Assembly: GCA_965206705.1 (NCBI GenBank)
Contig: CBDBKJ010000005.1
Span: forward strand, 642,979-706,978
Direction of reading: 5' to 3'
Source of the DNA: Vicinamibacterales bacterium
GTDB taxonomy: Bacteria > Acidobacteriota > Vicinamibacteria > Vicinamibacterales > UBA8438
DNA: 64,000 bases
This document shows positions 14,058 through 26,768 of the stretch, piece after piece. Positions within the stretch are counted from its first letter, which is position 1, and each line of letters starts with the position of its first letter. Position numbers and translations under genes: made by a program. Below the pieces are notes generated by a model. It worked only from the letters and a program-made list of their open reading frames with translations. It searched no databases and was not told the DNA's origin.

Positions 14058-16100
14058 CTACTCCGGCAGGGCCAGTGCGATCAGCTCGGGGACCGGCGTG
14101 CCGCCGACGGTCAGGGCGATGTACTGGCGCCCGTCGAGGAGATAGGTCATCGGGGTGCCGATCGCCCCGCGCGGGATGTCCACCGACGCCAACGCCTCGC
14201 CGGTCGCCTTGTCGACCGCGAGCAGGCGCGGACCGCCGGTCGAGCCGCCGGTGGTCAAAGCGTAGATGAGCAGGTTCGGGGTCACCAGCGGCCCGCTGCG
14301 GCTGCCGTCGCCGCCGAGGGGCGGCAGGTCGAGGTCGCGCAGCATCGGGTGGTTCCGCATGCGGTCGCCGTCGCCCAGCGGCTTCATCCACGCGTGGTCA
14401 CCGGTGTTCAGATCGATCGCGGTCATTCTGGAATACGGCGGCTTGAACAGCGGCAGGCCCTGGGGCATCGTCGGCGACCGGGTGCCGGCCCCGCGCGCCT
14501 CGATGATGTTCAGGGTGGCGCCCTCGCCAGGCTCGGGGTCGCGGTAGTTGCGCACGCTGAAGGCGTTGACCGAGGGCACGTAGAGCATTCCCGTCTCGGG
14601 GTCGACCCCGGCTCCCGACCAGTTGGCGCCGCCCCCCGCGCTGGGGCGCTGAATCGTCCCGCTGAGGCTCTGCGGCGTGAACAGCGGCCCGAGCCGGAAC
14701 CCGTCGACCGCATCGATCGCCATCTGGCGGATCTCCTGCGTGAAGTCGGCCAGATCGTCGACGGTGGCGCCCTGATACTCGAACGGCGCCGGCCGGGTGG
14801 GGAACGGCTGGGTGGGCCAGACCAGCTCGCCGGGGATGTCCGTGTCGGTGGGTACCGGGCGCTCCTCGATCGGCCAGACCGGCTCGCCGGTGACCCGGTC
14901 GAAGACGTACAGGAATCCCTGCTTGCTGACTTGCGCCAACGCCTTGACGGGACGGCCGTCCACCTCGATGTCGACGAGATTCGGGGCGGCGGGGAAGTCG
15001 TAGTCCCACAGCCCGTGATGCACCGCCTGGAAGTGCCACTCGCGCTGGCCGGTCTCGATGTCCAGCGCCACCACGCTCTCGGCGAACAGGTTCTCGCCCG
15101 GCCGGTGGCCGCCGTAGTAGTCGGGGGCCGGCGTGTTGGTCGGCAGATACACGAGGCCGAGCTCGGGATCCGCGCTCATCATCGACCACACCCCGACCTT
15201 GCCGGTGACCCGCCACGAGTCGCCGCCCCAGGTGTCGTTGCCGAACTCGTCGCCCTGGGGAATCGTGTGGAAGGTCCACTTGGTGCGGCCGGAGTGCACG
15301 TCGAATCCCCGCATCCACCCCGGCGGGGCTTCCCGCGTGATGTTGTACGACGAGATGGACGACGGGGTGATGATGGTGTCGCCGACCACCAGCGGCGGCG
15401 ACTGCACCGAATAGAGCAGGGCGTTCAACCAGTCCCGGTCTTCGCGGGCCGCGCGGGGGAGGTCGCGGGTGAGGTCGACGCGGCCATTCTCGCCGAAGTC
15501 AGCGCACGGACGCCCGGTCGCAGCCTCCACGCAGAGCAGGAAGCCGTTGCTCGTGCCCCAGAAGATGCGTTCCGCCGACCCGTCGGTCCAGTAGGCGACG
15601 CCGCGCTGGTTCCAGCGCGCGGTCATGGTGGTCGTGCCGGCCTCGTAGGTCTTCGGGTTGTAGACCCAGAGGGTCTCCCCGGTGGCCGCATCGACGGCGG
15701 CGCCCTGCGATGTCGGCATGTTGATGAACATCCGGCCGCCGACCATCAGCGGCGTCGCCTTGAGGTTGTTCGTATAGGGCGACTGGCGGTCGCGCCAGAG
15801 GTCGGGGTCCGCCTGGTCCAGGGCCTCGAAGACGACGTCCGATTGGGCCCGCCACTCGCCTCCGTCCGGGGTCGTCATGCTGACCCAGGCGTCGGCCGAC
15901 TGCCAGCGCCAAGCGATCTCCAGATCGCCGAAGTTGGCAGCGTCGATCTGGTCGAGCGGCGAGTATTTGGTGCTGCCGAGGTCGCCGCCGTAGGTGGGCC
16001 ACTCGCCGTTGGCAGGCGCCCCCTGTTGCGCGGCCGCCATCGGCGCAACCAGGATCGCCGCGCCCAGCATCCAGCAGATCGGGTGAACCCATCGCATCAT
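14058..16100 (-). CDS. PQQ-dependent dehydrogenase (quinoprotein, 8-bladed propeller type)
   Basis: MMRWVHPICWMLGAAILVAPMAAAQQ signal peptide, then GEWPTYGGDLGSTKYSPLDQI, the canonical quinoprotein N-terminus. About 680 aa. Confidence 0.85.
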   Translation of the reverse strand: MMRWVHPICWMLGAAILVAPMAAAQQGAPANGEWPTYGGDLGSTKYSPLDQIDAANFGDLEIAWRWQSADAWVSMTTPDGGEWRAQSDVVFEALDQADPDLWRDRQSPYTNNLKATPLMVGGRMFINMPTSQGAAVDAATGETLWVYNPKTYEAGTTTMTARWNQRGVAYWTDGSAERIFWGTSNGFLLCVEAATGRPCADFGENGRVDLTRDLPRAAREDRDWLNALLYSVQSPPLVVGDTIITPSSISSYNITREAPPGWMRGFDVHSGRTKWTFHTIPQGDEFGNDTWGGDSWRVTGKVGVWSMMSADPELGLVYLPTNTPAPDYYGGHRPGENLFAESVVALDIETGQREWHFQAVHHGLWDYDFPAAPNLVDIEVDGRPVKALAQVSKQGFLYVFDRVTGEPVWPIEERPVPTDTDIPGELVWPTQPFPTRPAPFEYQGATVDDLADFTQEIRQMAIDAVDGFRLGPLFTPQSLSGTIQRPSAGGGANWSGAGVDPETGMLYVPSVNAFSVRNYRDPEPGEGATLNIIEARGAGTRSPTMPQGLPLFKPPYSRMTAIDLNTGDHAWMKPLGDGDRMRNHPMLRDLDLPPLGGDGSRSGPLVTPNLLIYALTTGGSTGGPRLLAVDKATGEALASVDIPRGAIGTPMTYLLDGRQYIALTVGGTPVPELIALALPE

Positions 16101-16220
16101 CGTCGTCGCTCCTCGCAGGTGTCGAGCCCCGTCATCAAGGCGTTCATGATACCGCCACCTGCCGCGAGGCGACGATTTCCGGGGCCAGGGGTCTGCGCCG
16201 CGTAGCGGTGGAGCCTCCTG

Positions 16221-16290
16221 GGAGGGTTGGTTGGGCGGCAATCGGAGCCGCAGCGCGACCCTGCGGTCGCGTTCGGCGACGATTTCCGGG
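16221..16290 (+). repeat. conserved ~70-nt intergenic element, copy 1 (core 16247..16290); partial extra copy of the 3' box at 16168..16183
   Basis: GAGGGTTGGTTGGGCGGCAATCGGAGCCGCAGCGCGACCCTGCGGTCGCGTTCGGCGACGATTTCCGGGC. The core is 43/44 identical to 27999..28042. Contains alternative hairpins CCGCAG/CTGCGG and CGCGACC/GGTCGCG. Confidence 0.8.
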
Positions 16291-16306
16291 CTAGAATGGC
16301 CGTACG

Positions 16307-17050
16307 ATGCCCGAACAGATCCGCGGCCGGAGGCAGCATGCGGCGGCGGGCCTCGCCGCCGTGGCGGCGGTCGGTTGCGCCTTCGGCGCCGCCGTGGTCG
16401 AGGGGCGCATGGGCACGGCGCAACGCGAGCGGCGGCCGCCGCCCGAGACCTGGCATTGGGTGCTCCCCGCGCAGCACGGCGGGGTCGAGGTCGCCGAGCT
16501 GCATCCCGGCGACTGCTACGTGATTCGGCAGGCGGACGGCATCGTGTACTTCAGCGAGCCCCCGCCGGAGGTCCTCGAGCTCCAGGCCCGGCTTGGCGAC
16601 CCCGTCGCCCATCTCGTCGAGGAGGTCGGCGAGCATCCCGAGTGCCGGCGGGAAGAGTGCGTCGCCATGTCCCGCCTGACGGCGGCGATCACGGCGCGGC
16701 TCGTCGAGGCCGGCGATCGGCGGGCGGTCCGGCGGGCGAACCATCGGCCGTCGCCGCTCGACGACATGCGGGGCGGCGCGTACTCGGACGTGGGCTCCGG
16801 GAACCGCGGCCGCTATCGCCAGACCCGGGAGCAGCGCATGGCGTACCTGCACCTGCGCACCGCCGCCCGGGACAACTGCTATGCCGCGCAGGTGCCGCGG
16901 ACGTTGACGATCCACGTCCGGGACCGGCAGCATCGCGACGACCGGACCGGGTTCTACAGCGGATATCTGTATCTGGAACATCACCACGCGCCGATTCCGG
17001 GGCGGGTGGCAACGAACGAGCTCGTTTTCGTGGAGGCGAATGACCGATGA
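16307..17050 (+). CDS. hypothetical protein (N-terminal hydrophobic segment)
   Basis: 247-aa ORF with normal amino-acid composition. 4-nt ATGA overlap with the downstream MBL hydrolase gene. No recognisable motif. Confidence 0.5.
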   Translation: MPEQIRGRRQHAAAGLAAVAAVGCAFGAAVVEGRMGTAQRERRPPPETWHWVLPAQHGGVEVAELHPGDCYVIRQADGIVYFSEPPPEVLELQARLGDPVAHLVEEVGEHPECRREECVAMSRLTAAITARLVEAGDRRAVRRANHRPSPLDDMRGGAYSDVGSGNRGRYRQTREQRMAYLHLRTAARDNCYAAQVPRTLTIHVRDRQHRDDRTGFYSGYLYLEHHHAPIPGRVATNELVFVEANDR

Positions 17051-18108
17051 GACGATTCCTGATGACCCTTTCCATCGGCGCCCTGGCCGTGTTCGCGGCC
17101 CAGTGGCAGACCCGCGGCGCCGTCCTGCAGAGCCCGGACGGCAGTCCGAGTCACCGGTTCGAGGAGCTGGCTGACGGGGTCTGGTTCGCGATCGGCACCG
17201 GGTCGATGACGGTCATGAGCAACTCGCTGGTCATCATCAACGACGACCACGTGATGCTGGTCGACACGTCGGTGACCCCGGCCGCGGCGCGCGGGCTCGT
17301 CGAGGGCGTCGCCACCCTGACCGACAAGCCGATCGAGTACGTCTTCAACAGCCACTACCACTTCGACCACGCGCACGGCAACCAGATCTTCGGTGACGAC
17401 GTGGAGATCATCGGCCACGACTTCGTGCGCACGATGCTGTCGTCCGACGTGCTCAGCCAGCGCACCAACCGTTCGTTCACCGCGGTGATTCCCAATCAGA
17501 TCGAGCAGCGGAAGGCGCAGATCGCCGCCGCCGACGAGTCCGAGCGGGCCGGGCTCGAAACCCAGCTCCGCATTCAGGAGGCGCACTGGGAGGCGCTGCA
17601 GGAGACGGTGCCGACCCCGCCCAACCTGACCTACAGCGACACCATGACGCTGGTCAAGGGAGGGCGCGAAGTGCAGCTCCACTTCCCCGGGCGCGGCCAC
17701 ACCGGCGGCGACACCCTCGTGTTTCTCCCCGAGGAGCGCATCGTGTTCACCGGCGACTTCTTCGTCGGGCGCCCCGGGGGCCATGGCCTGCCGTACATGG
17801 GGGACGGCTACGTCGAGGAGTGGCCGGCGTCGCTCGACCGGCTGAAGGCGCTCGAGTTCGACGTGATGGTGCCCGGCCACGGCATGCCGTTCACCGAGCG
17901 TGAGCAGATCGACCACCTGCAGGCCTATCTCCGCGATCTGAACCGTCAGGTGAACGCGCTGTACGCCGAGGGCGTCTCTGCCCAGAGCGCGGCTCGGCGC
18001 GTGGACCTCGGCGCCCACGCCCAGCACTACGGCGCGGGGGCGGCGCGGGTCGATCCGCGCGCCGTGGTCCGCATGTACGAGCGGCTGCAGATCAAGATGC
18101 CGCGGTAG
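17047..18108 (+). CDS. MBL-fold metallo-hydrolase (secreted)
   Basis: Signal peptide MRRFLMTLSIGALAVFAAQ. Metal motif FNSHYHFDHAHGN (HxHxDH) and a later GRGHTGGD. Confidence 0.85.
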   Translation: MRRFLMTLSIGALAVFAAQWQTRGAVLQSPDGSPSHRFEELADGVWFAIGTGSMTVMSNSLVIINDDHVMLVDTSVTPAAARGLVEGVATLTDKPIEYVFNSHYHFDHAHGNQIFGDDVEIIGHDFVRTMLSSDVLSQRTNRSFTAVIPNQIEQRKAQIAAADESERAGLETQLRIQEAHWEALQETVPTPPNLTYSDTMTLVKGGREVQLHFPGRGHTGGDTLVFLPEERIVFTGDFFVGRPGGHGLPYMGDGYVEEWPASLDRLKALEFDVMVPGHGMPFTEREQIDHLQAYLRDLNRQVNALYAEGVSAQSAARRVDLGAHAQHYGAGAARVDPRAVVRMYERLQIKMPR

Positions 18109-18174: not shown

Positions 18175-19656
18175 TCAGCGGGCCGCATCCATCGCCTGCG
18201 TGAACGCCGACTGAAGCGCGGACTGCGCTTCGGTCAGGCGTGCGCGCGTGTCCCGCAGCCAGCCCCGACTCGCGTCCGCCTGCTCGCGCCCTGCCTGGAG
18301 CATGCGCGTCACCTCCGCCGCCTGGGGGCCGCCGAGGCCGCGTCGGCTCGCGACCATCTGCTCGGGGTCGAGCGCGGCCTGGATGAGCGCCACGTCGACC
18401 GGCAGCGGCTCGCTGTAGGCTTCCTCGTACAGGTGGAGCAGCTCGTCCGCGGTCAGGTCCTTGGGCCGCTTGCCGCCGGCGCGGCCATACTCCGTGATCT
18501 CCGACGCGTAGTGGTGACCGACCCGGAAGGGGACGTCGGCGTGGCGCAGCAGCGTATCGGCGACCTCGGTCATCGTGGCGTAGTCGGCGTCGACCTCCGC
18601 GAGCGACCGGGCGGGGTCGACGACCAACCCGTTCACGACGTCCGCGTAGAGGCGGTACATCTCCCCGGCCTTGGCGGTGGTTTCCAGAAGCTGGTCGGTG
18701 CTGCGATAGTCGGCCATGCCGGTCGAGGTGTTGTGCGCGTTGAGGAACACCGTCTGCGCGTCGCCGATCACGGTGCTCGCGAGCCGGCGGAGCGTGGCGA
18801 GAATGACGGGGTTCCGCTTCTGCGGCATGATGCTGCTGACCCCGGTGAGGGACCGGTCGAGGAGCAGCCAGGGCGCGGGGTCGTGATACTGGACGTGCAC
18901 GTCCTCCATGAGCTGACCGATGGACAGGGCGGAGATCGCGAGGGTCGACGCGACCTCCGTCTTCGAATCGACCGACGAGACGTGGTTGGCGTCGTAGGCG
19001 TTCTCGACCACGCCGTCGAACCCGAGCAGCTCGGCGAGGCGCTCGCGATCGAGAGGGAACCCGGAGGTGGCGAGGGCGGCGGCGCCGAGGGGGCTGCGGT
19101 TCACCCGCGCGAAGGTCTCCTCCAGGCGCTCGGCGTCGCGGTCGAGGGCGGCGGCGAAGGCCAGCAGATAGTGGGCCAGCGAAGTCGGCTGCGCCTGCAC
19201 TCCGTGGGTGTAGGCGGGAATGATGGTCCCGGTGTGTCGCCCCGCCAGGGTGAGCAACGCGTCGCGCGGCGCGAGCAGGGCGTCGTAGGCGTCGAGCAGG
19301 GCCTCGCGAATGGCGAGGCGGCGGAACGTCGAGCCGATGTCCTGACGGCTCCGGCCGGTGTGCAGCCGCGACGCGTCCCGGCCCGCGACCTCGACGAGCC
19401 GCGCCTCGAAGTCGAGGTAGTCGGACGAGCGCGGGGCGCCCGGCTCGGCCTGCTCGGCGACGACCGCCGCGACGCCGCCGGCGATCGCCGACGCCATCGC
19501 CTCGGGAACCAGGCCGACCTCGCTCAGCATGACGATGGACGCCTTGTTGATCTCGCCGAGATGGTGAAAGTCGTCATGCGCGGGTTGCGCGAACGCGGGG
19601 GCGGCGCCGAGCGAGAAGCCGAGCACCACCACCGCCGAGAGCTGACCACGTGACAT
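18175..19656 (-). CDS. argininosuccinate lyase/fumarase-superfamily lyase with N-terminal signal peptide
   Basis: LHTGRSRQDIGST and the superfamily signature GVSSIMPQKRNPV. The N-terminus MSRGQLSAVVVLGFSLGAAPAFAQP looks like a Sec signal. Confidence 0.8.
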   Translation of the reverse strand: MSRGQLSAVVVLGFSLGAAPAFAQPAHDDFHHLGEINKASIVMLSEVGLVPEAMASAIAGGVAAVVAEQAEPGAPRSSDYLDFEARLVEVAGRDASRLHTGRSRQDIGSTFRRLAIREALLDAYDALLAPRDALLTLAGRHTGTIIPAYTHGVQAQPTSLAHYLLAFAAALDRDAERLEETFARVNRSPLGAAALATSGFPLDRERLAELLGFDGVVENAYDANHVSSVDSKTEVASTLAISALSIGQLMEDVHVQYHDPAPWLLLDRSLTGVSSIMPQKRNPVILATLRRLASTVIGDAQTVFLNAHNTSTGMADYRSTDQLLETTAKAGEMYRLYADVVNGLVVDPARSLAEVDADYATMTEVADTLLRHADVPFRVGHHYASEITEYGRAGGKRPKDLTADELLHLYEEAYSEPLPVDVALIQAALDPEQMVASRRGLGGPQAAEVTRMLQAGREQADASRGWLRDTRARLTEAQSALQSAFTQAMDAAR

Positions 19657-19707
19657 CGCGTTCCTCCTGAATCGGGGCTTCTGAGTTCTCTACCGCTGCA
19701 ACAGAAT

Positions 19708-19739
19708 TCATCGATTTCACGAAAATTGATGAATTCTGA
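19708..19739. repeat. 32-nt palindrome-bearing repeat, copy A (downstream of Fic gene)
   Basis: TCATCGATTTCACGAAAATTGATGAATTCTGA. 8-bp arms AATTCATC/GATGAATT (19705..19712 and 19728..19735). Immediately followed by the 16-nt palindrome TGATGAGTTCTCATCA. Confidence 0.8.
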
Positions 19740-19998
19740 TGAGTTCTCATCAATCCGGTGCGCCGCAGTCGAGTCGGACCGCTCGACGGGTCCCCAACCA
19801 GCCCTCGTCGAGGCGGTCCACACGAACCGGGTCGCGCTGCGCGGCGTGGCGCGGGGGGCTTACCGCGGTCGCCGATATCGCGTCCCGCGCCAGTCCCGCA
19901 GGAAACTCCATGTCGCGACGTCGTCGAGGCTGGTATACCACAACCATCCCGCAGCCGGCCGAACCTGAGAATCGGAACAGAAGCGGTGCGGTGACCTC

Positions 19999-21360
19999 TC
20001 ATTCGGCCGGGGCGAGCGATTCGAGTCGGGCCTCGAGGTCGCGCGGGGCGTGGAAGACGTAGGTCCGCCCGCCGATCCGCCGCCGGTCGAGGAGCCCGAG
20101 CTCCGCGAGCCGGAAAAGATCGGCGCGGGCGGTAGCGTACGCGACATCGTGACTCGTCCGGTGGGACCGGGTCGTGTACTCGCCGTCCGGGTGACGGACA
20201 GCGTGGGCGAGCAGCGCGAGCTGGCGGTGGTTGAGGTCGGTTGAATGCTTGAGTCTGCGTTCGACCCGCTGCACCTGCTCGATCTTGGTTTCGAAGTACG
20301 TGTCGAGCTCGTCGATTGCGCGGCGAATCACGTCGACCTGATGCACGATGAAGTAGGTCAGGTCGTTCTCGTCGGTTTCGGTGTGGAGGAGCGCCCGGGC
20401 GTACTGCGCCGGAGCGGCCTTGAGAAATCGGCTGATCGAGACGAATTCGAACAGCCAATAGTCGTGGTGCAGCATCGCCCAGTAGAACAGCGCCCGGGCC
20501 GTGCGTCCGTTGCCGTCCTCGAACGGATGGTCGAAGGCGAGCCAGAAGTGCAACACGATGGCGCGGACGACGGGGTGCATGAACGCCCCGTCGTCGGCGT
20601 CCCGATTCGCGAACTGCACCATCTCGTTCAAGCGGCCGGGCAGTTGCTCTGCCGGCGGTGGATGGTAGAGCACCCGTTCCTGGGCATCACAGACCTCGAC
20701 CCGCTCGTCCTCGGGCCGTTGCAGACGCCCGGCCGCGGCCGGATCGCGAAGGGTGTCTTCCGTCAGTGTGACGTGCAGATCCCGCACCGCGTCCTCGGTC
20801 AGCGGCGAGTCCTTCATCGTGCGGACCGCCCGCATGGCGCGGTAGTTGTTCAGGATCATCCGTTCGCTGCGGTCCCTGGGGCGCCGTCCCGCGCGGAGCA
20901 TCCGCATCGCGGCGGCCCGCGTCGTGGAGGCGCCTTCGAGCTGGCTCGACGTGATGGCTTCCTGGATCAGCGAGTTGACGATGAACCGATCCCGGGTCTG
21001 CCGATTGGCCACGGTGTCGGACATTCCAATCCGGCCGCCGGCCCGGCTGTCGATTAGGTGCAGCGCCTCCTGGACGCGGTCGGGCAGCATGAAGTGGAAC
21101 GGCCGTCCGCGCGCGTCACGCAGTGGGATCTGGCGGAACAGGCCGCTTCGGGACAGCTTGATGCCGGTCCACCATTCCTCGCAGCTCAGGTCCCCGGGCG
21201 GATCGAGCCGTCGCAGCGTGTCCCAGTGAAGATAGCGGCCGTCCACCGTCGGGTGGAAGGAGTGGCGCATCAGCGCCGGCAGGCGATCGCTATGTCTCGC
21301 GATCAGCTCATGGAGGGGCAACTGGGAACGTGGTCGCTTCACGGTCACATCCTTCGTCAA
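19999..21360 (-). CDS. Fic family protein (class II, AMPylase-type active site)
   Basis: Canonical HPFEDGNGRTARAL (HxFx[DE]GNGRxxR) and an N-terminal inhibitory-helix motif SSQLEG ([ST]xxxE[GN]). C-terminal winged-helix-like tail. Confidence 0.9.
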   Translation of the reverse strand: MTKDVTVKRPRSQLPLHELIARHSDRLPALMRHSFHPTVDGRYLHWDTLRRLDPPGDLSCEEWWTGIKLSRSGLFRQIPLRDARGRPFHFMLPDRVQEALHLIDSRAGGRIGMSDTVANRQTRDRFIVNSLIQEAITSSQLEGASTTRAAAMRMLRAGRRPRDRSERMILNNYRAMRAVRTMKDSPLTEDAVRDLHVTLTEDTLRDPAAAGRLQRPEDERVEVCDAQERVLYHPPPAEQLPGRLNEMVQFANRDADDGAFMHPVVRAIVLHFWLAFDHPFEDGNGRTARALFYWAMLHHDYWLFEFVSISRFLKAAPAQYARALLHTETDENDLTYFIVHQVDVIRRAIDELDTYFETKIEQVQRVERRLKHSTDLNHRQLALLAHAVRHPDGEYTTRSHRTSHDVAYATARADLFRLAELGLLDRRRIGGRTYVFHAPRDLEARLESLAPAE

Positions 21361-21372
21361 GCGCAGGTTTAT

Positions 21373-21404
21373 TCATCAGTTTTTAAAAAATTGATGAATG
21401 GTGA
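21373..21404. repeat. 32-nt palindrome-bearing repeat, copy C (upstream of Fic gene)
   Basis: TCATCAGTTTTTAAAAAATTGATGAATGGTGA with perfect 8-bp arms ATTCATCA/TGATGAAT. Confidence 0.7.
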
Positions 21405-21421
21405 TGGGACTGTATCACATA

Positions 21422-21453
21422 TCATCAATTCCATGAAAATTGATGAACTCTGA
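21422..21453. repeat. 32-nt palindrome-bearing repeat, copy B (upstream of Fic gene)
   Basis: TCATCAATTCCATGAAAATTGATGAACTCTGA. 28/32 identical to copy A, in the same orientation. Confidence 0.8.
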
Positions 21454-21897
21454 GGCGCTCTGCGAACGGCGTGGGTGTGACGATCTGCATGAAGGGGTCC
21501 GCCGTGCGATCACGCGCGATTCCTCGGCGGGTGCGAGTCCCGTCTGGCAACTGTTGTTCCAGCCGGAAGCAGTCGGAGCGGACGAAGTGCCTGGGCGGTC
21601 TGCTCGACAGGTTTGGCGGTGAGACGCCCCTCCGCCAGCTCCCTCACAGTTCGGCCGATCGGACCTCGGCACGCGTAGCGGAAGAACGGTGCGCAAGAAA
21701 GCGAATTTTTCGCTTGACAACATTTTCGACCGCAGATCCTTCGCGGTCTGGGTGCGAGATGCAAGCGCGCTCTGGCTGCTGCATTGGCCCCCTGTGGCTC
21801 GGCGCCGGCCAGGAAGATCCAAACCGACCCACGCGCCCCGAATCGACGCGCACGGGCGCTCTTAAGCCATTTAGAAACAGGGGTTTACAATGGGTTT

Positions 21898-23547
21898 ATG
21901 AACGTTGCCCCAAACCAACAAGAGACGCGTCTCACAGCCCTCGCCCCGACATCCGCAGCCGTTGGCGCGACCACGCCGCGCGGAGCGCAGTCGCCAATGT
22001 CGCAGGCGGCGGTCCCGACGTGCATCGAGGATCAACGCGCGTCGGTTCTCGAGCGCCGCGACGACGCCCAACGTATTGGCGACGGCATCGCCGAGCTGTC
22101 GGCCCGCATCCAGGCCGCCACCTACGAGCTCCTCGGAATGATTCGCGCCTTCGACGAGCGCGAGGGGTGGGCCGGGTTCGTGTCCTGCGCTCACTGGCTG
22201 AACTGGCGCACCGGACTCGCCCTGGGCGCGGCCCGCGAGAAGGTGCGGGTGGCGCGCGCGCTGGCAGACCTGCCGTTGCTGAGCGAGGCGATGCACCGGG
22301 GTCGGATCTCCTACTCGAAGGTACGCGCTCTGACCCGGGTGGCGACGCCCGCGAACGAGCGCCGTCTCCTCGACTTCGCGCTGTCCGGCACGGCGGCCCA
22401 CGTCGAACGGCTGGCGCGGGCTTGGCGCCGAGCGGACCGGCTGGCCGAGGGGGCCGACGAACAGCGGCGGCAGGAGCGCCGGAACCTGACCACCTGGGTC
22501 GACGACGACGGGATGGTCGTCATTCGGGGCCGGCTGTCGCCCGAGGTGGGCGCCGTTGTGCGGCGGGCGCTGGAGGCGGCGGCCGACCGGTTGCGCGCGG
22601 AGGTGTCGCTGGAAGAAGCGGCGGAGAACAGCGTCGGCCAGCGGCAGGCGGATGCGCTGGGGGTAGTGGCCGAGAGCGCGTTGGCCGCCGACCTCGACCG
22701 AGGGACGGCCGGCGATCGCTACCAGGTCGTGCTGCACGTTGAGGTGGAGACGCTCCAAGCCGAGGCCGGGGACGGCGAGCCGGACGTTTCCGCGGAGACG
22801 CGGCCCGGCGCACTGCCGACGGCGAGTCCGGGTCCAGCGGGGGTGGTGATCGTCGGTTCGGACGTTTCCGCGGAGACGTCATCGCGCGTCGCCGGCGTCC
22901 GCGCGTGTGCAGATACGAGCGGTTGCCCGGCCCCGGCTGTCCCTTCTGATCGTGTTCCCGGCCAAGCCGCGCTCGAAGACGCCGACGGGCTCCGGGTGTC
23001 CGTCGAAACCGCCAAACGGATGGCGTGCGACGCGGCGGTGGTGGTGATGCGGCATGGCGTTGACGGCTCCGTCCTCGACGTCGGCCGCAAGACACGCACC
23101 ATCCCGCCGGCGCTCCGGCGCGCGCTGCAGGCGCGCGACCGCCAGTGCCGGTTCCCCGGCTGTCACGCCCGACGGTGCGATGTCCACCACGTCCGGCCCT
23201 GGGCCGACGGGGGTCCGACCCGGCTCGACAACCTCGTGCTCCTCTGCCGCCGGCACCACCGGGCGGTCCACGAGGAGGGCTTCCAGGTTGGAATGGGTCC
23301 GGCGGGCGATACCGAGTTCCGCTGGCCCGATGGCCGACCGTTCCCCCACGTACCGGTGGCGCCTGCCTGGTCCGGCCGGCCGCTGGCGCCAACAGATGAG
23401 CGTCTGGCCGACGCCGAGATCGCGATCGGCCCCGACACGGCGACGCCGGACTGGTATGGAGAGCGTCTCGATCTCGGCTACGCGATTGACGTCATGTGGA
23501 TGCCGCGCAGCGGCTCCGGTGCAAATGCAGGCGGCGCGCAGTCATAG
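21898..23547 (+). CDS. DUF222-type HNH endonuclease
   Basis: N-terminal DUF222-like region (ATYELLGMIRAFDEREGW...ISYSKVRALTRVA). C-terminal HNH: CRFPGCHARRCDVHHVRPWADGGPTRLDNLVLLCRRHHRAVHE. Confidence 0.85.
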   Translation: MNVAPNQQETRLTALAPTSAAVGATTPRGAQSPMSQAAVPTCIEDQRASVLERRDDAQRIGDGIAELSARIQAATYELLGMIRAFDEREGWAGFVSCAHWLNWRTGLALGAAREKVRVARALADLPLLSEAMHRGRISYSKVRALTRVATPANERRLLDFALSGTAAHVERLARAWRRADRLAEGADEQRRQERRNLTTWVDDDGMVVIRGRLSPEVGAVVRRALEAAADRLRAEVSLEEAAENSVGQRQADALGVVAESALAADLDRGTAGDRYQVVLHVEVETLQAEAGDGEPDVSAETRPGALPTASPGPAGVVIVGSDVSAETSSRVAGVRACADTSGCPAPAVPSDRVPGQAALEDADGLRVSVETAKRMACDAAVVVMRHGVDGSVLDVGRKTRTIPPALRRALQARDRQCRFPGCHARRCDVHHVRPWADGGPTRLDNLVLLCRRHHRAVHEEGFQVGMGPAGDTEFRWPDGRPFPHVPVAPAWSGRPLAPTDERLADAEIAIGPDTATPDWYGERLDLGYAIDVMWMPRSGSGANAGGAQS

Positions 23548-23966
23548 AGACTGACACTGCGCGCTCCGTCGCTCGCGCAGTGACCAATAGGACTCGCGCG
23601 CTTGCACCTCTCCTCAAGAGATCGCAGATCCTGACGTGCACCCCCTGAGTCGAAGTGCACGCCGGATCCGTTCCGCCGGCAATCGAAGCGCGCCGTCCCC
23701 ACTTGCGATCACCGCCACATGCCGCCCGACAACCGGTACGGCGCGGACCATCGCCGCGTTCTATCGAGAAGGTGTGTTCGGCCGGACGCCGACCAGGTCC
23801 GGCCATCGCTCCCGTGCCCTTGCCTGCGCCGCGACATACGCTGTCTCGAAGTCGTCCATTGCTCCTCCCGGGCGCCCCAGTGTGGTTACGGGGAATCTGT
23901 CGGTATGGCGCGCCCCGGCGAACCAGTAGTACTGCCCGTTGTCCGCAACGATGCGAGGTATAACCG

Positions 23967-25372
23967 AATGTTGTGGATCGGGGCGTGAGGCAGGTGGCAT
24001 ATCCTTCCACGTGAACAGAAGAAACACCCTGGCTGGCGGGCCGGGGGGAAGGAGACACCACCCATGTTGAAGGTACTCGACCAGAGCCCGGAAGACAATG
24101 CCGAGACGACTGAAGGCGCCGTGCCCACCCTCGATGAGGTCGCCCGGGAGGGGGCTCGGCGCATGCTGAGGGCTGCCTTGGAGGCAGAGGTCGCGCAGTA
24201 CATCGAGTCGCATGCGGAGGCGCGTGACGAAACCGGCCGGGCGCTGGTCGTCCGCAATGGCCGGGGGCAATCCCGCTCGGTGACCTGCGGGGCGGGGACG
24301 ATGCAGGTCCGGGCACCGCGGGTGAACGACCGGCGGGTTGACGACGACGGCGAGCGCCAGCGGTTCAGCAGTCGCATCCTGCCGCCGTACATGCGGCGGT
24401 CGCCGCAGGTGGCCGAGGTGCTTCCGCTGGTGTATCTGCGGGGGTTGTCGACGGGCGACTTTCGCGAGGCGCTCCCGGTGCTGCTCGGCGAGGACGCAGC
24501 GGGCCTGAGTCCGACGAACATCGCGCGGCTGACGTCGGCCTGGGACGAGGATTACCAGGCGTTCCGGCGCCGCGACCTGTCGGCGTGCGACTACATCTAC
24601 GTGTGGGTCGACGGGATCCACTTCAACATCCGTTTGGAAGAGGACCGTTTGTGCACGCTGGTGATCATCGGGGTGCGGTCGGACGGGACCAAGGAACTGG
24701 TGGCGCTCGAGGACGGCTATCGGGAGAGCACCGAGAGCTGGGCGAGCATGCTGCGGGACCTCCGGCGGCGCGGGCTGTGGGCGCCGGTGGTGGCGGTCGG
24801 CGACGGCGCGCTCGGCTTCTGGTCGGCGGTACGCGACGTCTGGCCGGAGACGAACGTGCAACGGTGCTGGTGCCACAAGATGGCCAATTGTGCTCGACAA
24901 GCTGCCCAAGCGTCTGCGGCCGCGGGCCAAGCGGGCGTTGCGGGAGATCATGTACGCCCCGACCAAGGCCGACGCCGAGACGGCCATCGAGGCCTTCGTT
25001 GCCGAGTTCGAGGCGAAGTATCCCAAGGCGACTGCCTGCCTGGTGACGGACCAGGCGGACTTGCTGACGTTCTTTGCGTATCCGGCGGAGCACTGGCAGC
25101 ATCTGCGGACGACGAACGTGATCGAATCGCCGTTCGCGACGGTCCGACTGCGGCAGCGTGTGACCAGAGGGGCTGGCTCGCGCACCAAGGGACTGCTGAT
25201 GGCGTTCAAACTGCTTGAGATGGCGCAGCGGCGGTGGCGGCGGCTGAACGGGGCGCACCTGCTACCCCTGGTTCGGGCAGGAGTGCGGTTCGTCAATGGC
25301 GTGCTGGACGAGCGCGGCGAGACAGAGAAGAAGGAGGCCGCCTGATCACGTCAAGAGCCGATCCACAACATT
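23967..25372 (+). mobile_element. IS256-family insertion sequence (~1.4 kb) with perfect 15-bp terminal inverted repeats
   Basis: AATGTTGTGGATCGG at 23967..23981 and its exact reverse complement at 25358..25372, flanking a Mutator/IS256-type transposase. No clear target-site duplication seen. Confidence 0.85.
24064..25345 (+). pseudogene. IS256-family transposase, frameshifted at ~24889
   Basis: ORF 24064.. reads ...YIYVWVDGIHFNIR...VQRCWCHKMAN and then shifts. ORF 24890..25345 continues (V)LDKLPKRLRPRAKRAL...EHWQHLRTTNVIESPF. One extra T in AATTG. Length is 3n+1. Confidence 0.85.
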
Positions 25373-25422
25373 TGACAATATCTCCAGGGTCACCGGAAAG
25401 GCGTCTCCATATTTGACCGTCG

Positions 25423-25716
25423 TTAGATGCCGTAGAAGCTCACGGCGTAGCGCCACGGCCGCGCTGTCCCGATCAGCCGACAGGCGTACTCCAGGGTAAA
25501 CAGCGCCACCGTCAGGGACTCGATCCACCTGAGTCCCGCCACCACCACCGCCGGCAACCCCCGGATCGTTCCGATAGAGAACGCCGCCAGCGAGAACAGT
25601 ATCACCGCAGACATCGTCAACTCGAACGCCTGCGTCTGCACCAGGCGCTGCAACCGCAGGCGCGGTCCCATGGGCGTCGGCGCCGGTGGGTAGTCCGACG
25701 GGAGCGGATGCATCAC
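25423..25716 (-). pseudogene. N-terminal fragment (97 aa) of an ion-transport (voltage-gated-type) channel protein
   Basis: FELTMSAVILFSLAAFSIGT and IESLTVALFTLEYACRLIGTARPWRYAVSFYGI resemble the S1-S2 segments. The ORF stops about 50 nt from the IS256 end. ATGA overlap with the NHL gene's stop. Confidence 0.55.
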
Positions 25717-26768
25717 TCCAGCAGTCGGATGCGGTGGGCTTCGCTGTCGCCGACGTAGAGCCCGCGGCCGGGCTCGTAGAAGATGCCGTGGGGCCTCGCC
25801 ATGCGGCAGCGCAGCGGATCGTCTTCCGGACCGTCTCCGCGCGCGCCGTCGCCGAGCACGGTGGAGATCAGGCCGGTGGCGGTGTCGACCATGCGGATGA
25901 CGTGGTTCTCGGTGTCGGCGATGTACAGCCGGCCCTCGGCGAACGCGAGCCCCTTGGGGCCGGCCAGCGTCGCGACGGGGGCGGGGCCGCTGTCGCCGGT
26001 GTAGCCCTGCTCGCCGGTGCCGGCCACGTGGTGGATGGTCTCGGCCGCCAGATCGATCCGGTAGATGGCGTTGCCTTCCCGCAGGGCCAGGTACAGGTTG
26101 CCGTCGGGGTCGCTGGCCATGGCGCGGGGGCCGTTGAGCGGCGTGCCGGCCAGCGGGGCCCCGTCGGGCGTCGGCTCGCGGTCGCCGGTGCCGGCCCAGG
26201 TCTCGATGTGGCCGGTGGCGGGGTCGACGCGGCGGATGCGGTGGTTCCCGATATCGCAGATCAGGAGCCGGCCGTCGGGGTCGAAGGCGATGCTGTGCGG
26301 GCGCCTGAGCATCGCCTCGACGGCCGGTCCGCCATCGCCGGAGAAGCCCGCTTCGCCGGTGCCGGCGACGGTGGAGATGACCCCCGTGACCGCGTCGACC
26401 CGGCGCACCACGTGGCTGTCGCGCTCGACGATGTAGAGATGACCCGCGCCGTCGAACTGGATCTCGTGCGGCATGTTCAGAGCGGCTTCGGTGGCGGGGC
26501 CGCCGTCGCCGGCGTAGCCCCGCTCGCCGTTTCCGGCGATGGTGGTCGTGGCCCCGGTCTCGCGGTCCAGCCGCCGGATGCGCTGGTTGTCCAGGTCGCA
26601 GAAGTACAGCGCGCCGTCGGGACCGACGACGACGCCGTAGGGATTGGCGACCTGCGCGTCGGAGAGACCCGCTGCGCCGTTGCCGATGACGGTGGTGACG
26701 GTGGCCGCCTCCGGGTGGGCGAGGCCGACGAGCAGCAGCGCCGATGCCAGACCGATCTTGCGTGTCAT
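25713..26768 (-). CDS. NHL-repeat beta-propeller protein (secreted)
   Basis: Start MTRKIGLASALLLVGLAHPEA. Six repeats of the type GNG..GY.GDGGPA..A.L..P..I.FD..G.LYI.D..NH.IRR.D. Confidence 0.85.
   Translation of the reverse strand: MTRKIGLASALLLVGLAHPEAATVTTVIGNGAAGLSDAQVANPYGVVVGPDGALYFCDLDNQRIRRLDRETGATTTIAGNGERGYAGDGGPATEAALNMPHEIQFDGAGHLYIVERDSHVVRRVDAVTGVISTVAGTGEAGFSGDGGPAVEAMLRRPHSIAFDPDGRLLICDIGNHRIRRVDPATGHIETWAGTGDREPTPDGAPLAGTPLNGPRAMASDPDGNLYLALREGNAIYRIDLAAETIHHVAGTGEQGYTGDSGPAPVATLAGPKGLAFAEGRLYIADTENHVIRMVDTATGLISTVLGDGARGDGPEDDPLRCRMARPHGIFYEPGRGLYVGDSEAHRIRLLE

Follow-up and report, generated by a model that had tools for sequence, protein, structure and literature searches.

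What do near-identical palindromic repeats do on either side of a gene for a Fic protein? The question is raised by a 64,000-nt stretch of the genome of a Vicinamibacterales bacterium (contig CBDBKJ010000005.1, C5:642979-706978; hereafter the window, the numbering of which is used throughout), where such repeats lie in the spacers adjoining fic (19999..21342, minus strand). The initial annotation of this DNA, made from the sequence alone, offered two answers. The repeats could be operators for a dimeric DNA-binding protein, with the winged helix of the Fic protein itself as the candidate reader, or they could mark the ends, or the recombination sites, of a small mobile cassette by which fic had arrived. 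The analysis described here argues for the former: we consider it probable that a class II Fic protein bearing a winged helix-turn-helix domain (wHTH) at its C-terminus negatively regulates its own gene through tandem 25-nt palindromes, and that the same operator stands in the promoter of a neighbouring lyase gene. For comparison, one genome per species was scanned, which gave 571 relatives, and the best 80 loci of the 571 were kept; the relatives carry the label Vicinamibacterales, phylum Acidobacteriota.

Anatomy and uniqueness of the repeats

The repeat unit is a 25-nt palindrome, TCATCAAT-N9-ATTGATGA on the gene strand, of which the window holds three copies, A (19708-19732), C (21373-21397) and B (21422-21446). 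The inverted arms TTCATC...GATGAA, by which the copies had been recognized in the initial annotation, are real, but copy B starts with aTCATC and the true unit is the longer palindrome. As described there, copies A (19708-19739) and B (21422-21453) are identical at 28 of 32 positions, i.e., with 4/32 mismatches, and the third copy (21373-21404) is more diverged, with 8-9 mismatches to A and B. The direct orientation of A and B means little, because the asymmetry is confined to the flanks of the palindrome. Two short palindromes of the form TGAT-N8-ATCA accompany the units (19737-19752 and 21402-21417), the first of which is the further palindrome, TGATGAGTTCTCATCA, that had been noticed after copy A.

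On the strand of fic, the elements upstream of the gene form a 74-nt array of 25-4-16-4-25 nt. It consists of palindrome B (21422..21446, minus strand; TCATCAATTTTCATGGAATTGATGA, 46 bits) as the site distal to the gene, the short palindrome TGATACAGTCCCATCA (21402..21417, minus strand), which includes an extended -10-like TGaTACAGT, and palindrome C (21373..21397, minus strand; TCATCAATTTTTTAAAAACTGATGA, 47 bits) as the proximal site, which ends 30 nt upstream of the GTG start codon of fic. Inverted repeats were thus found in the gene's own promoter region, the two 25-nt palindromes spanning 30-104 nt upstream of the start. Palindrome B presumably covers the -35 region of fic, and the short palindrome is the presumed core promoter. 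Copy A (19708..19732, minus strand; TCATCAATTTTCGTGAAATCGATGA on the gene strand, 42 bits) had been placed downstream of fic. It is better placed 52 nt upstream of the start codon of the lyase gene, as it occupies 52-76 nt upstream of that ATG. The companion of copy A, TGATGAGAACTCATCA (19737..19752, minus strand), lies 4 nt upstream of it; this 16-mer is an everted pair of operator half-sites and makes, together with A, a composite lyase operator, a 45-mer that scored 64 bits with the weight matrix described below. The apparent bracketing of fic is two consecutive transcription units, each with the same element in its 5' region.

The repeats are not explained by chance. Against an expectation of 0.02, the window contains two occurrences of TTCATC-N11-17-GATGAA; for AAAATTGATGAA with at most one mismatch, it contains four (0.03 expected). 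Nor does the host genome, which is 6.56 Mb long with 69.5% GC, contain further sites of this kind. An operator weight matrix, trained solely on sites of other genomes and then run over the 6.56-Mb genome, gave 36-47 bits to the three window sites and less than 18 bits to all the remainder, and a Hamming scan of the genome found no other place within 10/32 mismatches of any copy. The outcome of the genome-wide motif search suggested in the initial annotation depends on its stringency: these strict scans find solely the three local sites, whereas the loose motif TCATC-N13-19-GATGA, with 66 matches per strand that are nearly all GC-rich, unlike the three AT-rich sites, was set aside as uninformative. 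The repeats do coincide with the most A/T-rich spots of the region, as had been noted; GC is 0.48 at 21300-21499 and 0.585 at 19600-19799, against ~0.69 for the genome. An Rfam scan of 19500-21900 gave no family match for the spacer or the operators. Reading the short palindrome as a Fur box was rejected, as there are no further genomic sites and the arm spacing differs from that of the Fur consensus.

A class II Fic protein with a winged helix

The likely start codon of fic is the GTG at 21342, which gives a protein of 447 aa beginning with MKRPRS. The longest open reading frame (ORF) starts at a TTG at 21360, and the orthologues begin with M/V-K-R-P at the position of the GTG. The Pfam Fic domain was recognized with 64.3 bits (cut-off 24). 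The active-site motif HPFEDGNGRTAR (residues 278-289) matches HxFx(D/E)GNGRxxR, and H278, F280, D282, G283, N284, G285, R286 and R289 are invariant in 78 homologues. N-terminal to it, in the same polypeptide, the segment SSQLEG (residues 138-143) fits the inhibitory motif (S/T)xxxE(G/N), with S138, S139, Q140, E142 and G143 again invariant in the 78 homologues. Because of these two invariant motifs, the fic product is assigned to the class II Fic proteins, and AMP-transferase activity is predicted for it. The Pfam Fic_N match is weak and below the cut-off (20.8 vs 26.7 bits), and the segment with the inhibitory motif has a low predicted local distance difference test score (pLDDT) in the structural model.

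The model, built with AlphaFold2 (AF2) on the alignment of homologues, has a mean pLDDT of 82.4. It places a winged helix at residues 378-437, with helices at 378-389, 397-404 and 408-420 and strands at 425-429 and 433-437; the sequence match to Pfam HTH_DeoR is faint (E 0.12). The best Foldseek matches were 7CB8, 8CIL (CbFic2), 3EQX/3ZEC (SoFic) and 7XUX (CccR), with alignments of 364-405 columns to 7CB8, 8CIL, 3EQX and 7XUX.

The element accompanies fic across phyla

In roughly 25 loci of Vicinamibacterales (65-85% identity), the palindrome lies 25-148 nt upstream of fic. We aligned 55 sites from 29 loci. The core arms, CATCA on the left and GAT on the right, are present in 55/55 sites, but this says little, since most of their letters were prescribed by the search pattern. 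More informative are the neighbouring AAT and ATT, on which the pattern placed no constraint: they agree at about 32-50 of the 55 sites. The central five positions are not dominated by any one letter. As judged from this alignment, the conservation of the sites has the signature expected of a protein-binding site. The arrangement is also conserved. Where sites occur in tandem, their spacing is exactly 49 bp in nine loci and 39 bp in one, and in L005-L009 and L011 an orthologous B site precedes C by exactly 49 bp. The short palindrome, TGAT(g/a)N7CATCA, stands 4 nt before the 25-mer with a per-column agreement of 36-44 of 55 (29 loci).

Distant homologues (50-57% identity) from Gammaproteobacteria, Planctomycetota, Verrucomicrobiota, Chloroflexota, Actinomycetota, Gemmatimonadota and others are preceded by the same layout with other outer letters. 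These forms are CTATCAAT-N9-ATTGATAG, TACTAAT-N9-ATTAGTA, GGCTAAC-N9-GTTAGCC, GCTAAT..., TACCAAT... and TCCAAAT.... The layout, composed of an 8-nt arm, a 9-nt spacer and an 8-nt arm, was found before fic homologues in at least eight phyla. When AT-rich palindromes with such arms and spacer were sought within 260 nt upstream of fic, 56 of the 80 upstream regions contained one, against 19 of 1747 control regions from the same loci. This test replaced a generic one (9-nt arms of any composition), the background of which was too high (461/1747 controls). Even a Fic homologue with 34% identity, encoded on the Klebsiella pneumoniae plasmid pKp_SB617_1 (IncFIB, NZ_CP084826.1) and sharing an extra N-terminal region with the protein studied here, has a near-perfect palindrome, AACTCAATTTT-CGTC-AAAATTGAGTT, that ends 8 nt before the ATG (L134:1470-1506). 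The flanking genes are unrelated between fic loci, and fic is therefore the sole constant partner of the element.

At most other fic loci, the units are found upstream of the gene alone, in one to three tandem copies. The gammaproteobacterial locus L030 stands apart. Here, a 45-nt operator unit of the CTATCA class is repeated three times at 120-bp intervals upstream of fic (L030:3660-4000), and a further unit (L030:5335-5385) lies across the stop codon of fic, opposite a convergent glyA. Unit copies evidently arise repeatedly around fic, and at L030 such a copy may act in DNA looping.

Half-site letters follow a residue of the predicted recognition helix

From clade to clade, the half-sites have different outer letters (CATCA, TATCA, TACTA, GCTAA, TACCA and TCCAA, classes that were partly assigned by eye), and these letters change with residue 409 of the Fic protein, the second residue of the predicted recognition helix (408-420). 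Alanine at this position goes with CATCA or TATCA (27/27), and glutamine or glutamate with TACTA (19/19). Glutamine is also found with GCTAA (eight loci, by eye), glutamate with TCCAA, and aspartate with TACCA in two separate subclades (L035 and L046). The Klebsiella homologue has asparagine at the equivalent position and the half-site ACTCA. The locus L052, with TATCA and A409, is nested within a group of TACTA loci that carry Q409 or E409. Residue 397 varies as well, being threonine in 16 of 18 cases with CATCA and isoleucine, phenylalanine or valine with TATCA, and the surrounding residues of the winged helix are nearly invariant (Y395, H400, S403, H404, T410, A411, R412, D414 and L415). 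On a tree built without the winged-helix columns, we found no counter-example to the pairing of residue 409 with the half-site. Such tracking would be expected if the Fic winged helix reads the arms, for which it is strong circumstantial evidence.

A model of negative autoregulation and its precedents

From the above features, the mode of action can be sketched as follows. Each 25-nt palindrome, the arm centres of which are 17 bp apart, would be bound by a Fic dimer, with one recognition helix on either arm. At the fic promoter, the two palindromes would flank the short palindrome with its extended -10-like TGaTACAGT, the three centres being 24.5 bp apart. Occupancy of the operators would cover the -35 region and the transcription start and thereby repress fic, i.e., negative autoregulation of a potentially toxic enzyme. 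The third copy and its short palindrome, 52 nt upstream of the gene for an exported ArgH-like lyase, would bring the lyase and two same-strand genes under the same repressor. What the sketch assumes about binding, the stoichiometry of the dimer, the position of the promoters and the sign of the effect (repression, not activation) is modelled on two relatives, CccR and SoFic. The operator proposal of the initial annotation is favoured by the fold model, the precedent of CccR and SoFic, the conservation across phyla and the half-site tracking.

Thousands of Fic enzymes carry a C-terminal winged helix. To our knowledge, an operator has been mapped solely for CccR among Fic-wHTH proteins, and we know of no direct target beyond the protein's own fic gene. 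The phylum-spanning operator architecture, the candidate specificity residues and the candidate second direct target appear to be new for Fic-wHTH proteins, as none of them is described in the papers that we consulted.

CccR (YPK_0951; PDB 7XUX) of Yersinia pseudotuberculosis is a class II Fic protein with a C-terminal helix-turn-helix (HTH), the dimer of which represses its own promoter via AGATAATCAT-N26-ATGATAATCT, overlapping the -35 and -10 boxes; mutation of the palindrome abolished binding and derepressed the gene, and no binding element was found in the promoters of the other genes regulated by CccR (PMC9755527). The Fic protein studied here resembles CccR in having an N-terminal inhibitory helix, the canonical Fic motif and a C-terminal HTH, and the structural match is significant (Foldseek rank 11). 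Nevertheless, the relationship is remote (phmmer E 6e-06), and the present protein has about 110 extra N-terminal residues. The operators are also different: CccR reads 10-nt arms at 26-bp spacing, whereas the arms here are 8-9 nt long and 7-9 bp apart, the phasing is 49 bp, and short everted palindromes are interleaved. CccR is an effector of a type VI secretion system, and no secretion context was seen at this locus. Finally, CccR has no second direct target on record, whereas here a full operator lies in the promoter of a neighbouring gene.

Specific binding of SoFic within the 100 bp that precede its own gene is a property of the dimer and not of the monomer (bioRxiv 10.64898/2026.07.09.737422). 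SoFic (SO_4266/MloA of Shewanella oneidensis; 3EQX/3ZEC) combines Fic with a C-terminal wHTH and is a top structural match of our protein, but the two are non-orthologous; the operator sequence of SoFic is undefined, and its target, EF-Tu, is not transferable to this system. CbFic2 of Coxiella burnetii has a high affinity for random DNA, and its (de)AMPylation activity is stimulated when DNA is bound (PMC10628234). CbFic2 (8CIL) is likewise a class II Fic protein with a C-terminal wHTH that forms a dimer and binds DNA; unlike the random DNA bound by CbFic2, the elements described here appear to be sequence-specific and promoter-placed. The locus further recalls type II toxin-antitoxin systems of the Phd/Doc type, in which the expression of a potentially toxic enzyme of the Fido fold is kept low through an operator in the enzyme's own promoter. 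Here, there is no separate antitoxin gene. The enzyme would be inhibited by a helix of its own, and it carries the DNA-binding domain in the same chain.

The present locus, taken together with its relatives, supplies a sharp operator architecture for a large, uncharacterised Fic-wHTH subfamily, along with a candidate single-residue specificity rule and a candidate second target gene. If the proposed regulation is genuine, the lyase and its two same-strand neighbours would be the first predicted direct target of a Fic-wHTH protein beyond its own gene, the regulons of such proteins would become predictable from sequence, and a coupling of transcription control to protein AMPylation would become a testable idea. 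It is attractive to speculate further that, in this subfamily, enzyme and operator form a self-contained module that spreads horizontally, in which residue 409 (with 397) sets the outer letters and the layout and 49-bp phasing are fixed, and that the operator was copied into the lyase promoter, where its retention reflects a second function. We regard this wider scheme as a tentative one that we would lean against.

The lyase gene as a possible second target

The lyase gene (18175..19656, minus strand) encodes an ArgH-like protein with Pfam Lyase_1 and ASL_C2 domains and an N-terminal signal-like segment, and its ATG has a good ribosome-binding site, GGAGGA. The score against the argH model, 256.6 bits, is below the equivalog cut-off of 279.5. 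The gene heads a conserved same-strand block (lyase, 16981-18027 and 16097-16987), the order of which is kept in L005-L011 and L018. Close orthologues of the lyase are confined to this family, and the usual argH paralogues of the order are 35-38% identical to it.

Among the 22 genomes of the genus, orthologous fic is present in nine and the lyase in 20. Site A is found upstream of the lyase in the fic-bearing relatives. Site A lies 52 to 385 nt from the stop codon of fic, depending on the locus, but at a nearly constant distance from the lyase start. In L010 (G158), fic is present, and both the lyase and site A are absent. Site A is the lyase's own 5' element, because (i) it is kept without fic, (ii) it is absent without the lyase, (iii) its distance to the lyase is near-constant, and (iv) the junctions between alleles, described below, do not fall at the repeats. 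The lyase is accordingly the presumed second target of the operator. Outside the genus, lyase orthologues (about 75% identity) have neither an adjacent fic nor the palindrome.

Downstream of the lyase operator of L007 (L007:5595-5760), the right arm of the unit recurs in tandem with its flank (GAACTGATGAGTTCAAGCCCGGCGGATCTC...), three to four times, which adds extra half-sites before the lyase.

Evidence against the proposal and alternative explanations

Several observations weigh against the explanation given above. As to the protein, its score with the NCBIfam model for SoFic orthologues, NF046030, is 47.5 bits against a cut-off of 550; the Fic protein shares the SoFic architecture and belongs to a different subfamily. 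It also bears an extra conserved N-terminal region of ~110 aa (residues 1-110; window 21025-21342, minus strand), modelled with a pLDDT of about 90, which may have no counterpart in SoFic, CccR and CbFic2, the chains of which are 60-90 residues shorter. As to the half-sites, the tree provides three independent contrasts only, all or most of them in the expected direction, and the sign test is not significant (p at least 0.25). As to the promoters, a scan of 19600-21600 for sigma-70 promoters and terminators found nothing; for this reason, the promoter positions are inferred, and the promoter overlap is a conjecture. The remaining points concern the species that lack fic. Site A and the 16-mer stand before the lyase in seven genomes without any trace of fic at the locus (G151, G159, G160, G162, G163, G165 and G168), and site A is also intact in two genomes with fic remnants alone (G128 and G156). 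The 60 nt beside site A in the fic-less genomes are 65-88% identical to those of the nearest fic-bearing relatives. No stand-alone winged-helix homologue was found in the genus genomes without orthologous fic, and a 27%-identical Fic paralogue, considered as an alternative reader in these genomes, was rejected as its upstream motif is different.

Two of these items deserve a remark. The extra N-terminal region, in which Y43, W46 and W64 are invariant, possibly has a role in dimerisation or sensing. The 27% Fic paralogue (L127-L133), which is missing from the present genome, is preceded by a conserved element of its own, GTGAATCGCTGCTACAATCTCCGCGAATCGTGCGG; by the look of its sequence, its N-terminus may resemble that of DUF4172-type Fic proteins.

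The retention of site A in fic-less species lowers our confidence in the regulation of the lyase by Fic, which we hold to be only somewhat more probable than its opposite. In the fic-less lineages, the arms of the lyase site are intact in seven of nine, and site A has decayed in G154 and G167. The composite unit may double as the lyase promoter, being the only AT-rich stretch in the intergenic region before the lyase, or the losses of fic may be recent. Remnants of fic in three genomes (G128, G156 and G167) indicate that its loss is ongoing. The case for Fic reading the sites in its own promoter is not much weakened by the retention.

Among the other explanations, the best surviving one is that the repeats are functional cis elements that Fic does not read, being either promoter elements or the operators of an unlinked regulator for both fic and the lyase. 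It would account for the intact lyase site in fic-less genomes that lack a winged-helix homologue, and it agrees with the elements being the only AT-rich, promoter-capable intergenic sequence and with the resemblance of the short palindrome to an extended -10 sequence. Nevertheless, the element follows fic into unrelated contexts in at least eight phyla, with no other gene constant, and the half-site letters change with the residues of the Fic recognition helix. The genome has no further sites, so a global regulator is not indicated, and Fic-wHTH proteins have been published to bind their own promoters. We consider this explanation unlikely.

Alternatively, the downstream copy could be not a lyase operator but an auxiliary one that cooperates with the upstream copies, e.g., through a loop of the DNA around fic. 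Bracketing has indeed recurred independently in L030, where the 3' unit, at the fic stop codon, cannot be the promoter of a same-strand downstream gene because glyA is convergent. In the genus, however, copy A keeps its distance to the lyase start and not to fic, survives where fic is gone, and was lost together with the lyase in L010. An auxiliary role is thus quite improbable here, and a lyase operator is preferred.

The cassette hypothesis, in which the repeats are att-like or dif-like terminal or recombination sites of a small mobile element that delivered fic, starts from genuine features of the locus. The gene is patchily distributed in the genus and sits in a variable slot. The NHL-repeat gene (25716-26702, minus strand) and the lyase gene adjoin in the genus, and what lies between them varies. 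Seven species have the order NHL gene, B, 16-mer, C, fic, spacer, A and lyase, and in the present genome an extra 4.2 kb, with a frameshifted IS256 element and a DUF222-HNH gene, separates the NHL gene from the operators of fic. Alleles without fic hold one copy of the unit, those with fic have copies on both sides, and L030 also has a unit on each side of the gene. The comparison of fic-less with fic-bearing alleles proposed in the initial annotation, however, went against the cassette: empty and filled alleles do not differ at the repeats. About 230 nt of the spacer are kept without fic in G162, the deletion in G128 runs from inside fic into the spacer, and the homology of L116-L118 to the window continues ~25 nt to the left of the unit. 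Furthermore, the downstream copy is found solely where the lyase follows, apart from L030, and belongs to the lyase promoter, as its absence from L010 and its variable distance to fic indicate; L010 and L012-L032 (L030 apart) have upstream copies only. No conserved recombinase, integrase or transposase is linked to fic, the IS256 element and the DUF222-HNH gene being specific to this genome, and half-site tracking by winged-helix residues is unexpected for recombination sites. The cassette reading is largely refuted by the allele comparison, and we regard it as very improbable.

Finally, it is scarcely credible that a nucleoid-associated protein that silences foreign DNA binds the repeats simply as generic AT-rich tracts, which would suit the AT-richest spots of a genome of this composition beside horizontally mobile genes, as a composition-driven binder explains neither the exact palindromic arms with a variable centre, nor the fixed 49-bp phasing, nor the clade-specific half-sites.

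The fic-lyase spacer and the variable slot

The spacer between fic and the lyase element (19753..19998, minus strand) is 246 nt long and contains no convincing ORF. It is probably non-coding, as its small ORFs are not conserved between relatives. The spacer alignment revealed a perfect 10-bp palindrome, TGGTATACCA, at 19931-19940 within the conserved core TCTGTGGTATACCAGCC. The palindrome is kept in L005-L007, L011, L018, L010 (without lyase), G162 (without fic) and G167, and it could be a promoter-like TGnTATAcc or another operator.

In this genus, genes turn over frequently in the slot between the NHL-repeat gene and the lyase (21447-25715; loci L115-L125), which is occupied in the present genome by IS256, DUF222-HNH and fic. 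At 21525-21683 on the plus strand, in the non-coding DNA just before the DUF222-HNH gene, Rfam gave a match to group II intron D1-D4 (RF02003) that is below the threshold (26.5 bits vs a gathering threshold of 49, E 0.0023). Other genomes carry different genes in the slot, which were named by appearance: a small ORF resembling a VapB-type antitoxin in G160, G165 and G154, an apparent minus-strand ORF of membrane-like character in G162, and, in L008, an ORF resembling an IS21-type transposase between fic and the lyase.

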